DNA of 64,000 nucleotides. Source: an uncultured Gammaproteobacteria bacterium. GTDB lineage: Bacteria > Patescibacteriota > Microgenomatia > CAZETR01 > Amesbacteraceae. Positions 39,204 to 53,470 of this stretch are shown one piece after another. How positions within the stretch are numbered: position 1 is the stretch's first letter; each line of letters begins with the position of its first letter. The position numbers and the translations under genes were made by a program. The notes under the pieces are model-generated. The model was not told the origin of the DNA and did not search any database. It saw only the letters and a list, made by a program, of their open reading frames with translations. Where the stretch lies: positions 93,352 through 157,351 of the forward strand of contig CAZCXU010000001.1 in assembly GCA_964502885.1 (NCBI GenBank), read 5' to 3'.

Positions 39204-39841
39204 AAATAGTGGTAGTGCCTGGTTATGGTTTGCCGACTGATATTTTTGCGGATGAAATGTACGAGAAGTATTTTCGGGTAGTAAAGAGAAAGATAAATGA
39301 ATATGGAGATGAAGAGATGCACTTAATTTTTTGTGGAGGAAACACCGATTTGGACCCGCCGTATGTGAGAACTGAAGCGGAAGAAATGAAGAAATTGTGG
39401 GAGCTAAAGTTTGGTAAGCCTAATGTGAAAGTGTGGTTGGAAAAAGAAAGCCTATCGAGTTTAGATAACCAGGTGGGGGCGAAAAAGATAATGGAGACAA
39501 ATGGCTGGAAGGTTTTGCCGCTATTGTTTTGTGAACGAACGCGATTGGAAAGAATTCGGCTGATTGCCAAATGGGTGTATGGGGCTGAAGTGGAAGTGAT
39601 TCCGGTGGATTTATATACTGAAGAGCAATTGAAAGATTTGACGCTGATGACGGCAAAGGAAGAAGCGCAGAAGATGGCAGTACTTTGGGCTATACAAAAT
39701 GAAACGAACTTGAACAAATACAGACAGATGTTTGTGGAGAAATTCAGGATTTTGAGAGAGGCGAAACCGTGGGAGAGGGAAGAAAAATTGAAAGAGATGT
39801 ATGGTGAGATGGCGAGGAATGAACAACCGCAAACCAAATGA
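39200..39841 (+). CDS. DUF218/YdcF-like protein
   Basis: MKIVVVPGYGLPTDIFADEM...IFCGGNTD resembles the YdcF/ElyC fold. Confidence 0.45.
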   Translation: MKIVVVPGYGLPTDIFADEMYEKYFRVVKRKINEYGDEEMHLIFCGGNTDLDPPYVRTEAEEMKKLWELKFGKPNVKVWLEKESLSSLDNQVGAKKIMETNGWKVLPLLFCERTRLERIRLIAKWVYGAEVEVIPVDLYTEEQLKDLTLMTAKEEAQKMAVLWAIQNETNLNKYRQMFVEKFRILREAKPWEREEKLKEMYGEMARNEQPQTK

Positions 39842-39872: not shown

Positions 39873-40166
39873 TTAAATGTCTAGTTTGACGGTGGTATCT
39901 TTTAATGCCTGTTTCATCTGGCTTCTACCAAATCCACTCTTCAGAAATTTTTCCCTTGCTAGAGCGTCCTTTCTGGAAATGAAGTATTCGTAATGAATAA
40001 GTTTTAGTGGTCTTCTAAATTTAGTTGCTGTTACCCGACCTTGTGCGTGGAGAATCAGTCTGTGTTTTAGGTCGGACGTGAACCCAATATACAATCTGTG
40101 GTCTTTTTCACTAAAGAGGATGTAGGTATAAAAACGTTCCTTGGAAACGTCTAACGTTTCACTCAT
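39873..40166 (-). CDS. GIY-YIG nuclease family protein (UPF0213/YhbQ-like)
   Basis: FYTYILFSEKDHRLYIGFTSDLKHRLILH. The ORF track extends to 40202; 40166 is the start inferred from family alignment. Confidence 0.6.
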   Translation of the reverse strand: MSETLDVSKERFYTYILFSEKDHRLYIGFTSDLKHRLILHAQGRVTATKFRRPLKLIHYEYFISRKDALAREKFLKSGFGRSQMKQALKDTTVKLDI

Positions 40167-40240
40167 CAAATATATTATGTGTGTCGCGTCTGACGCGATC
40201 ACCTTGCAAACACGTCTTCTTGCGAAGCCGCGTTTGACGC

Positions 40241-40639
40241 GGTGGAGATGGAGGGAGTTGAACCCTCGTCTGTGTAAGTTTTGAAAACCGGTTTATTACA
40301 AGTTTGTTTGGTATAAAGCTGCCAACAGCTGCTGGTTAGTTGGTCTTTTTTCGATTTAGGATAACCAAAGCCGATCGAAAGCATTCCGATAGGGTTTATC
40401 ACTAAAGAAAAGTTATCGGAAAAACAATTCTTGAGTGTCGGCTTGTCCCTACTTAAGCGTAAAGCATGCGAGGGGCAAACTGAGTGCTGAAGATGGAGTT
40501 GAAAGGATTGACCTTTGCAACAAAACCTTCAACGCGTGCTTTTAAGTTAGCACTTTGTTTTGAATCTGTTTTACGAGTGTGATTCGAACTCGACTTGCCG
40601 ATATTTCAAGGTGCTTATACATCGAAACCCGTCATCCCC
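40241..40639 (-). ncRNA. ssrA: tmRNA (SsrA)
   Basis: Minus-strand 5' end GGGGATGACGGGTTTCGATG and 3' end GAGGGTTCAACTCCCTCCATCTCCACC form the tRNA-Ala-like acceptor with a G3:U wobble, the GGTTCAACTCC T-arm and an encoded CC. An internal short ORF could supply the tag. smpB lies 1 kb away. Confidence 0.7.
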
Positions 40640-42709: not shown

Positions 42710-42974
42710 CAAATGAGATTATTAAATAAGAAATCATTATTACTAATATTGCTGGGTGGGATTTTTTACTTGTCATTTTATGTGTTTGGTTTGCTACATC
42801 GTATTGGGTTTCCTATTACACATCCCATTTATGCAGATTGTATTGGACACAAAAGGGTGTTTGAAGATTCAAGGGGTATAAGAAGAGTCGCGTGCTATGG
42901 ATTTATATACAACATCTGGCTTGAGTAAAGGGTTTTTTAGTTGTATTACAATTTGTTGTTTTTGGGGATGTGGG

Positions 42975-43095
42975 CGGAAGGGGCGAATATTGAACTTCGT
43001 TCAAGAATCTCGCAAGACAGCGGAAGGGGCGAGATGGTGTGCGGTGCTTCGCATCCTCCGTTATCTCGCACTCTTTCTTCGCAGCGGAGCTGCTG
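42975..43095 (-). repeat. Two degenerate partial copies of the tRNA-Ser(TGA) 3' end
   Basis: CGGAAGGGGCGA at 42975 and 43011 repeats the tRNA 3' acceptor/T-arm sequence at 43096. The 42975 copy extends to ...ATATTGAACTTCG, against the genuine ...GATTCGAACTCGCG. Confidence 0.5.
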
Positions 43096-43181
43096 CGGAA
43101 GGGGCGAGATTCGAACTCGCGAGGGTGTTGCCACCCTAGAGGTTTTCAAGACCTCCGCACTCGACCACTATGCGACCCTTC
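43096..43181 (-). tRNA. tRNA-Ser (anticodon TGA)
   Basis: Reverse complement GGAAGGGTCGCATAGTGGTCGAGTGCGGAGGTCTTGAAAACCTC...GTTCGAATCTCGCCCCTTCCG, with a long variable arm. Confidence 0.75.
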
Positions 43182-43216
43182 CTAGTGCAAATTAGCCTCC
43201 AAAATTATACCATTCA

Positions 43217-51724: not shown

Positions 51725-52852
51725 AATAAAAAGGGGGAGGAAAGTTCGAAGAGAAGAAGTTTTTGTGGCAAGAAATATAAATAAGGGAAAGGAGACGCTT
51801 TGAAAGCGGGTAAATGCGGCCAGATCGCGAACTAACAAGGGGGTAAGAAAGATCGATAAGGATACGCCCCAAAGAACAAGGGGAAGGGTTTTACGGCTAA
51901 GATATAACAAGATGATCACAAAAAAAGCAACGAGGTTGTCAAGCTGGGAAGCGTGAACAGTATGGAAAGGTAGGTCTATTGTTTTCATAAGTAGTATGAG
52001 GTTGAGAATGGGGGCGGGAAGAACCATCGGACTGTACCAAACTGATTGGATGGCGAAGAAATAGATGGGATTATGTGCGGTTAAGTAATTGAATACCATC
52101 CAAACCAACATGGGTAGGCCGATGATTGTCGGATATACAACAGCCGTAAGCGGTTTAATTTTGGTTTCGACTATGGATTTAATCAGAATGAACAGGAAGA
52201 TGAAATTGACCAGAACAACTGTTCCTTTGGTTACATTTATCAGACCCAGCAGGATGGACGCGGGGAGGAACTTCTTTTGTAATAGGAAGTAGCTAAACCA
52301 GACAAGGAACAGCATTAGCAATGATTCCGCGTAATATGAGCGGAAAAAAATGGAAAAAGGGAAGACAAAAAGCAGCCAGGAAGCGCGTATGGCTATTTGT
52401 GGATTGTATAGCCTTGAAATTACAATCATTAAACTGAGAAAATTGCATACAAGAAGGATTTGAGTGAGGATAAAGGCGGCGAGTAACGAGTCTTTGAAAA
52501 TGACTTTGGTGAGCCAGCCTAGTAGTGGAAATGCAGGGAAAAAGGCATACGAAGGATTTTGCATAAGACTTTTGTCGTTGAGTGATTGCTCTGTGGGAGA
52601 AAACGAGTATCCAGAATCAATAATTTTTAAATACCATTGGGCGTCAAACTGGGCCATTCCGTGAAGAAGGTTGAAACCTTTTCCTGTGATGCGGGGATCT
52701 GTGAAGTAGTGGTGGGCATCATTGTGGTATGAAAAGCGGTTGAGGGGGATGAATGTGTGGAAAGTGCCGATAAAAAAGTAAAGAAGTGTATTGAATAGCA
52801 TAAATAACAAAGTGTGGCGAATCAGTATGTGTGGGGTTGGGGGGCCAGCCAT
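51662..52852 (-). CDS. polytopic membrane protein, GT-C/DUF2029-like mannosyltransferase (tentative)
   Basis: 396 aa, multi-TM. The FDAQWYLKIIDSGY motif is typical of GT-C mannosyltransferase loop 1. Confidence 0.4.
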   Translation of the reverse strand: MAGPPTPHILIRHTLLFMLFNTLLYFFIGTFHTFIPLNRFSYHNDAHHYFTDPRITGKGFNLLHGMAQFDAQWYLKIIDSGYSFSPTEQSLNDKSLMQNPSYAFFPAFPLLGWLTKVIFKDSLLAAFILTQILLVCNFLSLMIVISRLYNPQIAIRASWLLFVFPFSIFFRSYYAESLLMLFLVWFSYFLLQKKFLPASILLGLINVTKGTVVLVNFIFLFILIKSIVETKIKPLTAVVYPTIIGLPMLVWMVFNYLTAHNPIYFFAIQSVWYSPMVLPAPILNLILLMKTIDLPFHTVHASQLDNLVAFFVIILLYLSRKTLPLVLWGVSLSIFLTPLLVRDLAAFTRFQSVSFPLFIFLATKTSSLRTFLPLFILSALGLCLVSLFFVNWYWIG

Positions 52853-52885
52853 GATAAAATTCTACAGCAGTGTGGAGTTGGTTTT

Positions 52886-53094
52886 GGAGAGGTCGCATAC
52901 AGGAGCCTCTATCTTCAACCTCGCGGTTGAAGTTTCTCCTGTATTACTTCCTCTCCTCGTTTCACTTGGAGAGGTCGCATATCAAACTTGCAGTTTGATA
53001 TAGCTTGCCGTGCTTTGTCAAAAATTGTAAAAATTTTTGAGTCGCAGGGCGCACTATAGCAAGCTATTTGACCTTATTTGTAATAAAATTTACT
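52886..53094 (+). repeat. Two partial 5' copies of tRNA-Ser(GGA), each followed by a strong hairpin
   Basis: GGAGAGGTCGCATA at 52886, 52968 and 53101 (the gene). Flank GTTTTG is also duplicated at 52880 and 53094. The 52886 copy forms a 71-nt element closed by GGAGAGG...CCTCTCC. The 52968 copy is followed by a perfect hairpin ATATCAAACTTGCAGTTTGATAT. Confidence 0.5.
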
Positions 53095-53100
53095 GGTTTT

Positions 53101-53187
53101 GGAGAGGTCGCATAGTGGTCTAGTGCGCACGCTTGGAAAGCGTGTGTCGCCGAAAGGTGACCGCGAGTTCAAATCTCGCCCTCTCCG
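53101..53187 (+). tRNA. tRNA-Ser (anticodon GGA; CCA encoded at 53188-53190)
   Basis: GGAGAGGTCGCATAGTGGTCTAGTGCGCACGCTTGGAAAGCGTGT...GAGTTCAAATCTCGCCCTCTCCGcca. Confidence 0.75.
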
Positions 53188-53190
53188 CCA

Positions 53191-53465
53191 ATTCGGATTC
53201 GAAAAAAGCTTTTTTAACTCCACTGCTGGTTTGTATTTATGGTGACCGTCGCGTCGAACGCGACTAACGCGCCTCGTCCCGTTAAGCGGGACGCGTGGAA
53301 TCACGAACAAATCTTGCCCTCTTTGGCCAATTCGGATTCGAAAAGAGCTTTTTTAACTCCACTGCTGGTTTGTATTTATGGTGACCGTCGCGTCGAACGC
53401 GACTAACGCGCCTCGTCCCGTTAAGCGGGACGCGTGGAATCACGAACAAATCTTGCCCTCCTTTT
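53191..53465 (+). repeat. 2x tandem direct repeat (~139 bp unit) immediately 3' of tRNA-Ser(GGA); each unit ends in a tRNA-3'-end-like sequence
   Basis: Units 53191-53329 and 53330-~53464 are near-identical. Each contains hairpins GTCGCGTCGAACGCGAC and CGTCCCGTTAAGCGGGACG and ends ...ACAAATCTTGCCCTCTTTGGCCA, against the tRNA 3' end TCAAATCTCGCCCTCTCCGCCA. Confidence 0.6.
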
Positions 53466-53470
53466 AAATC

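Follow-up and report, generated by a model that had tools for sequence, protein, structure and literature searches.

Folded units headed by copies of the tRNA 5' end recur upstream of tRNA-Ser genes in Patescibacteria and may be insertion modules of a nuclease-linked system

Why should the beginning of a tRNA gene be repeated directly in front of the intact gene? The question is raised by the tRNA-Ser(GGA) gene in a 64,000-nucleotide (nt) stretch of contig CAZCXU010000001.1 (assembly GCA_964502885.1, positions 93,352 to 157,351, forward strand), here called the window, from a genome placed in the Amesbacteraceae. Each copy heads a folded unit, and such 5' orphan units form a recurring and apparently undescribed class at the starts of tRNA genes in Patescibacteria (the candidate phyla radiation, CPR). 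We give about an even chance to the reading that the window units are insertion modules lacking an open reading frame (ORF) that belong to a nuclease-linked system targeting the tRNA D-arm in Patescibacteria. The elements of the locus are the following, in window coordinates.

53101-53190, + strand: tRNA-Ser(GGA), intact gene (ARAGORN; Rfam RF00005, 57.6 bits).
52879-52899, + strand: direct repeat 1, the 7-nt flank TGGTTTT followed by tRNA nt 1-14, 100% identical to 53094-53114.
52886-52956, + strand: unit 1, a 71-nt rod hairpin headed by an orphan copy of tRNA nt 1-14 (fold -34.5 kcal/mol, z = -6.9).
52957-52967, + strand: linker TCGTTTCACTT between units 1 and 2, with near-identical linkers elsewhere.
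52968-53075, + strand: unit 2, a second orphan copy of tRNA nt 1-14 plus hairpins.
52852-52860, + strand: TGATAAAAT, an extended -10-like motif and candidate promoter for leader plus tRNA, as read from the sequence.
53084-53089, + strand: TAAAAT, a -10-like hexamer and candidate second promoter in the tail of unit 2.

An initial annotation of the window had described partial 5' copies before tRNA-Ser(GGA), and exact repeats are indeed present. The 21-nt sequence TGGTTTTGGAGAGGTCGCATA occurs at 52879-52899 and at 53094-53114, and a 16-nt third copy, TTGGAGAGGTCGCATA, lies at 52966-52981. The 19-mer named in that annotation is also real, with true starts at 52881 and 53096, 1-2 nt from where it had been placed. 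Both upstream copies consist of tRNA nt 1-14 (exact, starting at 52886 and 52968) and 2-7 nt of 5' flank, and the segments that separate successive repeats, up to the one at the gene, measure 66 and 112 nt. The 14-mer, with at most two mismatches, has four sites in the window against 0.33 expected, a number reached in 0 of 100 shuffles; the fourth site is the 5' end of tRNA-Ser(TGA). Neither ARAGORN nor Rfam RF00005, even at E values up to 10, calls a tRNA or pseudogene at 52886-53100. The unit interiors have no further copy in the window or in about 180 related loci, and therefore do not behave as miniature inverted-repeat transposable elements or other dispersed repeats.

The 71-nt element of the initial annotation folds as claimed. 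It is closed by the 7-bp helix GGAGAGG/CCTCTCC, continues with a 9-bp helix (ATACAGGAG/CTCCTGTAT) and ends in an inner 8-bp hairpin (CTTCAACC/GGTTGAAG). The 9-bp helix, which starts at GCAT, is 100% paired with three compensatory pairs, in a comparison of three sequences only: the window and the two loci that are the nearest relatives of unit 1, L154 and L049 (Amesbacteria). The linker that follows has close counterparts after the CTCC strand of units at L147 (TTCGTTTCACTAC), L134 (TCGTTGCACTC) and L126 (TCGTTAGCACTC). Unit 2 comprises a 10-12-bp hairpin at 52979-53001, which holds the perfect 10-bp hairpin ATATCAAACT-TGC-AGTTTGATAT already seen in the initial annotation, and a long AT-rich hairpin at 53002-53065. 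Its closing helix, GAGGTCG/TTGACCT, pairs 52971-52977 with 53069-53075, and the stretch from unit 2 onward (52968-53100) folds at -40.4 kcal/mol (z = -4.3). The start of unit 2, GCATATCAA, and the word GCAAGCTAT are similar to units at L143 and L150. A terminator scan returned one site, against 1.2 expected by chance: the GC hairpin at 52913-52932 in unit 1, followed by TTTCTCCT.

Two scans place these units in a wider family. The first used the first 28 nt of the tRNA with one genome per species and yielded 120 loci in several phyla; among them, exact copies of a gene's own 5' end within 1 kb upstream occur only in Patescibacteria or in unclassified metagenome-assembled genomes. Before tRNA-Ser(GGA), L049 has one 5' copy at -79 and L102 (Daviesbacteria) has two, at -146 and -62, all with the boundary at nt 13/14. 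The second scan sought pairs of 13-mers 45-75 nt apart in metagenomes and recovered 52 stretches, most of which are units directly upstream of tRNA-Ser genes (anticodons GGA, TGA, GCT and CGA). Most related units are 58-85 nt long, lie 8-12 nt upstream of tRNA-Ser and occur in one to three tandem copies, on contigs that have the window's tRNA-Ser/Arg cluster. The copy always ends in the D arm, mostly after nt 13. It matches the gene that it precedes: at L126 both the unit and its tRNA-Ser(GCT) begin GGAGGAG, and at L147 a unit before a GGAAGGG-type tRNA also begins GGAAGGG. At L147 the tail of the preceding unit, whose 5' end is beyond the contig start, has the matching CCTTCC strand. Units made of a 5' copy and hairpins also precede tRNA-Arg(GCG) (L140, L132, L022) and tRNA-Val (L046), with boundaries at nt 14-21, all in the D arm. 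The suggestion of the initial annotation that tRNA-Ser genes are hotspots for duplication or insertion is thus supported, and reaches well beyond the window into independent CPR assemblies.

Some collected loci show other arrangements. At L086, L106 and L121 (Uhrbacteria-type) a different conserved element lies upstream of tRNA-Ser(GGA). It has tRNA nt 1-23, an insert of about 80 nt closed by CCCCGCC...GGCGGGA, and then TGCGCTTG...CAAGCGC, which resembles a continuation through the D-stem and anticodon-stem; the whole looks like a tRNA copy with a D-loop insertion, cut off past the anticodon arm. L122 (WBZM01000095.1) and L130 (WBZM01000011.1) carry tandem arrays of 57-58-nt and 82-nt repeats, each starting GGAGAGGTCGCAT and preceded by GACCTC (palindrome CGACCTC/GAGGTCG), with no recognisable tRNA adjoining. 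Ser-type tRNAs with a long variable arm and unusual anticodons were predicted by ARAGORN at L154 (94-181, ACT) and L184 (1145-1234, CTG, read as Gln), and near 3040 of L143 visual inspection gives ACT or CTA as possible readings of the anticodon loop. All three may be pseudogenes or recoding tRNAs. At L168, two loci lying 8.2 kb from each other (oriented positions 672 and 8879) share an identical stretch that covers 671 nt or more of upstream sequence, a 66-nt unit and the tRNA as far as nt 29, where they pass into two different tRNA-Ser genes. A large duplication or an assembly artefact is the probable cause, and a recombination junction in the conserved 5' region of the tRNA is another candidate; we did not use these loci as evidence.

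Folding and pairing are conserved across the family. The mean folding z score is -3.2 over 53 units. Pairs were counted in an alignment of 24 sequences (A2), from which a covariance model (R1) was also built. The commonest subgroup pattern is GGAGAGG-TC-GCATAAG-AAC-[hairpin]-AAC-CTTGAGC-TA-CTCTCC-linker, in which the AAC/AAC internal loop is conserved and the helices around it vary. Over the 24 units, 80.8% of cells in the specified helices are paired, against at most 43% when the 3' partner is slid, and 29 cells show double changes against 10.3 in shuffles, with none of 500 shuffles reaching 29. Paralogous units at L102 have compensatory differences at the hairpin tip. RNAalifold returned no structure from a MAFFT alignment because the loops were misaligned, and the pairs were instead counted on a structure that we specified. 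The number of paired nt in the 13-mer does not discriminate (8.1 in units, 8.0 in shuffles). All 29 strong matches of R1 lie directly upstream of tRNA-Ser genes. On the window it gives unit 1 18 bits and unit 2 13 bits, mostly from the 13-mer, which is below subgroup membership; the score of 18 bits makes the window units architectural relatives of the main subgroup and not close sequence relatives.

Nuclease genes are physically joined to units of this kind. At L068 the orphan 13-mer is separated from the tRNA by 300 nt that make up a 90-amino-acid (aa) GIY-YIG ORF (Pfam E = 9e-16), in which the last four codons are GGA GAG GTC GCA and the stop codon is tRNA nt 13-15. This ...GEVA protein end is encoded by GGAGAGGTCGCA. 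GIY-YIG ORFs overlap the 13-mer at L030, L068, L112, L132, L137, L144, L147 and L183; at L132, L144, L147 and L183 the ORF runs into the first 13-mer of an array and stops there, giving the order ORF, unit, linker, tRNA, and L142 has units together with a frameshifted cassette in one array. Among all GIY-YIG matches in the collected loci, 14 of 18 lie within 151 nt of a tRNA or tmRNA (transfer-messenger RNA), always on the same strand. A profile search of a database of 5.8 billion proteins found the ending G-x-V/I-A, corresponding to the four codons in the first 12 nt of a tRNA-Ser gene, in 58 of the best 120 homologues (34 GEVA, 10 GGVA, 5 GRVA and others, GEIA among them), in a ranking somewhat biased by the GEVA contained in the profile. 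In two proteins, P0242 and P0243, the reading frame continues through the tRNA (…GEMLEWLKRASC).

Stop codons are enriched at the unit junctions. Of 49 units, 24 have an in-frame stop codon that is completed by the two bases directly following the 13-mer, where 19% would be expected (p = 1.6e-6, for units that are not independent). Together with the ORF stop at tRNA nt 13-15, this enrichment indicates that the 13-nt orphan coincides with the overlap of ORF and tRNA. The link to GIY-YIG genes, which the initial annotation did not contain, gives the 13/14-nt boundary a concrete, if putative, meaning. The overlap of a small GIY-YIG gene with a tRNA does not seem to have been described, and our literature search returned nothing on GIY-YIG/tRNA overlap or, for CPR, on leaders that copy a tRNA 5' end. 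A stretch directly before unit 1 (DKILQQCGVGFGEVA, read in the GEVA frame) was considered as a candidate GIY-YIG remnant; a hidden Markov model (HMM) gave it no support and it was set aside.

The placement of the units bears on how they would be expressed. Of 30 distinct arrays, about 15 have a -10 motif of the form TA..AT that ends 8-14 nt ahead of the first unit, and in 11 of those it has the extended form TGnTAnAAT. Linkers from related units to the tRNA, usually just 8-12 nt, are too short to hold a promoter, so in most loci the units are probably part of the primary transcript. This position, between a promoter-like -10 and the tRNA, argues that the units would act as cis leader sequence. 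In the window, TGATAAAAT ends 25 nt before unit 1, and a consensus promoter scan made no call at that site; the second motif, TAAAAT, lies 11 nt before tRNA-Ser(GGA), a spacing like that at other loci. The larger distance and this second motif close to the tRNA make co-transcription less certain in the window.

The reading that the window units are insertion modules is backed by direct observation of recurrence, folding, covariation, placement and physical linkage to ORFs. Under it, module DNA would be placed after tRNA nt 13/14 and would end in its own copy of nt 1-13(14), rebuilding the tRNA gene downstream and leaving the original 5' end as an orphan by the promoter. Since the module carries a replacement 5' end, the tRNA gene would stay intact. 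The module interior, complementary to the orphan, would lock it in a hairpin; orphan, module and linker would be transcribed as a long 5' leader, which RNase P would remove by cutting at the true +1. A nuclease of the GIY-YIG family may cut near nt 13/14 in tRNA genes without a module, and use of an occupied copy as repair template would then spread the module, as in homing; the patchy spread of units among isoacceptors and the fusion of ORFs to units would be indirect support for this. Modules could outlast loss of the ORF, being presumably harmless and destroying the target site, which would also make them immune to re-cutting. The 139-bp units downstream of the gene, described below, look as if they could be a 3'-side counterpart.

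A broader claim, that tRNA genes of Patescibacteria host a new kind of selfish insertion, is put forward only tentatively. It would combine entry at the D-arm, a spare 5' end, removal by RNase P and spread by a minimal GIY-YIG nuclease whose last four codons and stop would be supplied by tRNA nt 1-15, with folded, ORF-less units such as those of the window as non-autonomous derivatives that destroy the target.

Several points weigh against the window units being modules of such a system. The flanks of tRNA-Ser(GGA) (52780-53115) have neither a GIY-YIG ORF nor a remnant of one, with family HMM scores near 0 on their six-frame translations. The window's only member of the GIY-YIG family adjoins the tmRNA and belongs to a subfamily other than that of the ...GEVA ORFs. 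Window units are no sequence kin of the ORF-fused units (18 bits with R1, no blastn match), and their putative membership of the class rests on architecture plus two distant relatives. The hexamer at 53084-53089 and the terminator-like hairpin in unit 1 mean that co-transcription with the tRNA may fail. The conserved AAC/AAC loop and the long-kept helices fit a functional RNA at least as well. The ORF proteins, of roughly 90 aa, consist of the nuclease domain only; no DNA-binding domain is recognisable in them, and their sequence-specific cutting of a tRNA gene is thus putative. Finally, no clean pair of filled and empty orthologous sites was found in the genomes searched.

The 3' sides of tRNA genes in the window hold further repeats and the window's GIY-YIG gene.

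53170-53461, + strand: 139-bp tandem repeat, 2.1 copies, 99% identity (repeat search).
43020-43035 and 42974-42986, - strand: two partial 3'-end copies of tRNA-Ser(TGA), downstream of the gene at 43095-43182 (-).
39873-40166, - strand: 97-aa GIY-YIG nuclease ORF (Pfam PF01541, E = 3e-14; tblastn).

The initial annotation had mentioned both a downstream tandem repeat, now confirmed with a period of 139 and 2.1 copies, and repeats at tRNA-Ser(TGA), which correspond to the two partial 3'-end copies listed. The 139-bp units start right after the CCA of the tRNA and end in a copy of the segment from T-loop to acceptor, CAAATCTYGCCCTCY (53170, 53308, 53447). This is a layout of the tyrT/rtT type, with no similarity to the Rfam RtT family. 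Each unit has two perfect GC-rich hairpins (53248-53264 and 53276-53292; 53387-53403 and 53415-53431), including GTCCCGttaaGCGGGAC. Perfect GC-rich 6-bp hairpins are rare, with six in the 64 kb, four of them in the 139-bp units and one at the junction of tmRNA and GIY-YIG gene. A Logan contig of the same organism (SRR12404947; L001 1-214), which starts inside the tRNA, has one 139-bp unit only, reflecting either copy-number polymorphism or assembler collapse.

The tmRNA (40241-40639, -) is followed after 75 nt, on its own strand, by the 97-aa GIY-YIG ORF, which has short GC hairpins before it (e.g. 40228-40242). The subfamily of this nuclease is found 3' of tRNAs elsewhere: at L179 (Amesbacteria) the order is tRNA-His, hairpin GTCCCGtttgaCGGGAC, GIY-YIG ORF, diverged copy of the tRNA 3' end, and the hairpin is similar to those of the 139-bp units. 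GC hairpins shared between the 139-bp units and the ends of GIY-YIG cassettes suggest that the 139-bp units may be ORF-less relatives of a 3'-side cassette. A direct comparison of the 139-bp unit with the tmRNA-side cassette gave a marginal 24-nt match (score 23, shuffle maximum 22), on which we do not rely. Some 60-70 nt past the GIY-YIG stop, at 39802-39817, lies a sequence that weakly resembles the tmRNA 3' end (CCTCGCCATCTCACCA compared with CTCCCTCCATCTCCACC), inside the 3' end of a DUF218 gene on the opposite strand. The tag peptide that ARAGORN predicts for the tmRNA is unusually long (ARVEGFVAKVNPFNSIFSTQFAPRMLYA, 28 aa).

No partial end copies were found at the window's other four tRNAs and tmRNA. 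Three homologue look-ups gave one useful relative, L174/L175 (GCA_023379775.1), which is without tRNA-Ser(GGA). It has no partial 3' copies at tRNA-Ser(TGA), and tRNA-Ser(GCT) follows that gene on the same strand about 48 nt away; in the window these genes are convergent, and the 384 nt that separate them (42711-43094) contain the two partial 3' copies. The convergent arrangement suggests that tRNA ends have undergone inversion or rearrangement. For the membrane glycosyltransferase that flanks the locus, homologues occur in Woesebacteria, Gottesmanbacteria and Levybacteria; the best non-self match has 50% identity and no relative exceeds that value, which points to a CPR bacterium of Microgenomates type without a close sequenced relative. 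The only match to the NUDIX gene was a 1.4-kb contig from this organism itself. Every 2-kb bin of the window (1-64000) has positive GC skew, and cumulative skew rises monotonically; with no switch in skew, there is no sign of an origin or terminus in the window.

Four other explanations of the 5' copies were considered. The first is that the units are a selected cis-acting leader RNA of the tRNA-Ser precursor, mimicking acceptor and D-stem, with possible roles in 5'-end protection, RNase P timing or protein binding; the GIY-YIG genes would then be mere neighbours. We regard this as unlikely, even with several observations in its favour: helices are kept through compensatory change, the AAC/AAC loop is conserved amid varying helices, units sit right after promoter-like motifs at the head of tRNA operons, and both the 5' copy and the closing strand track the cognate tRNA. 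It does not readily account for the patchy distribution among isoacceptors, since units precede different tRNAs in genomes that share the same cluster order, and many genomes are without units. Copy number varies from one to three and the interiors are very diverse, those of the window included. The coincidence of the boundary with the ORF overlap and the enrichment of stops at the junction are not predicted by a pure RNA function, and no Rfam family matches the units at gathering or E-value thresholds in the window region and eight related loci.

Neutral duplication debris, produced by slippage, template switching or unequal crossing-over and folding just from its tRNA descent, is a distinctly improbable source of the copies. 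Several observations fit it: the 139-bp repeat is a simple tandem duplication at 99% identity of which the second assembly of the organism has one copy, L150 has two identical units, L165 has a partial tandem duplication of tRNA nt 1-50, and the window is without an ORF remnant. In most units, however, identity ends sharply at nt 13/14, in many lineages and with no gradual decay, and the sequence between the copies is unrelated to the tRNA. Folding is far above that of composition-matched shuffles and the helices covary. The initial annotation would have left the copies as debris had they neither recurred in related genomes nor shown conserved structure; they recur, and their helices show compensatory changes. 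Given recurrence and covariation, debris is disfavoured.

That the copies are attachment (att) site scars of integrase-borne elements since deleted, with the tRNA gene as attB, is very improbable. In the 120-locus scan, tRNA-Ser genes of many phyla are commonly followed by partial 3' copies that start in the T-loop, and such copies occur here at 53308, 53447 and near 43000; they match what Williams in 2002 reportedly described as a classical sublocation of tRNA att sites. The classical duplicate, however, is the 3' part of the tRNA, from the anticodon loop or T-loop to the 3' end, and not nt 1-14, and at tRNA-Ser(GGA) only the separate downstream copies at 53308 and 53447 are of that 3' kind. 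The segments between repeats are only 66-139 nt, a Pfam scan of genes in the vicinity of the tRNA cluster turned up no integrase, IMG/VR contains no match to the 21-mer or to the tandem pattern, and 52853-53470 had no match in phage and plasmid records by distant blastn.

Trans-acting tRNA-derived small RNAs or decoys that titrate seryl-tRNA synthetase, a tRNase toxin or RNase P are equally hard to credit: unit 1 is tRNA-sized, keeps the full tRNA-Ser acceptor helix and, like unit 2, could be freed by RNase P cuts at both +1 positions, but its closing strand is followed by neither a 3' CCA nor a discriminator G, many members lack acceptor closure (e.g. L049, L154, L131 and L159), and nothing requires or points to a trans role.

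Known systems share parts of what the insertion-module reading proposes. Phage T4 SegB is a homing endonuclease of the free-standing GIY-YIG type, encoded within a cluster of tRNA genes. It cuts the tRNA gene region of a competitor genome, after which repair copies the gene with its flanks (PMC2330249), and it has been reported to drive local segmental amplification (PMC13096335). As in T4, a small GIY-YIG gene lies among or against tRNA genes. Unlike SegB, the CPR genes are chromosomal, and none was found in viral contigs of IMG/VR. Their products, of about 80-95 aa, have no extra DNA-binding domain and are only presumed to cleave; the ORFs share exactly 12 nt, and in addition their stop codon, with the tRNA; and ORF-less folded units duplicate the tRNA 5' end.

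The E. coli tyrT locus, described by Rossi et al. in 1981, is said to have 178-bp repeats with the last 19 nt of tRNA-Tyr and to be the source of rtT RNA. Its tandem units directly 3' of a tRNA with 3'-end copies are like those at 53170-53461, but the window repeat has no sequence or Rfam similarity to it, and tyrT is without a 5' counterpart or a nuclease link. In att-site duplications, too, direct repeats of a tRNA end bracket an insert whose copy restores the gene. There the repeat is classically the 3' part, the enzyme a tyrosine integrase and the insert kb-sized, whereas here nt 1-14 of the 5' end bracket 66-119 nt and no integrase is seen. Group I introns in bacterial tRNA genes and the homing cycle of endonuclease genes, in which loss of the ORF leaves immune insertions, likewise feature a selfish insert in an essential, conserved RNA gene, removal at the RNA level and persistent ORF-less derivatives. 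The units differ in that no ribozyme fold was found in them, that insertion is in the D-arm and not the anticodon loop, and that the proposed removal would be 5'-leader processing by way of a spare 5' end, with no splicing. The combination of 5'-end duplication, folded orphan unit and tRNA-completed ORF is present in none of these precedents.

For CPR genomes, these arrangements explain an annotation trap in which ORFs overlap tRNA genes and tRNA-like fragments appear upstream of the real genes, and the units are a candidate structured RNA motif for Rfam. If the proposed system is real, it would include a large family of minimal GIY-YIG nucleases with specificity for tRNA genes, at least 58 of whose 120 closest members have tRNA-encoded ends, and such nucleases could be tested as natural site-specific enzymes. 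It would also be a third way for a selfish element to reside inside an essential RNA gene: introns splice themselves out and integrase elements rebuild the 3' end, whereas this element would supply the tRNA with a new 5' end and leave the remainder to be discarded by RNase P.

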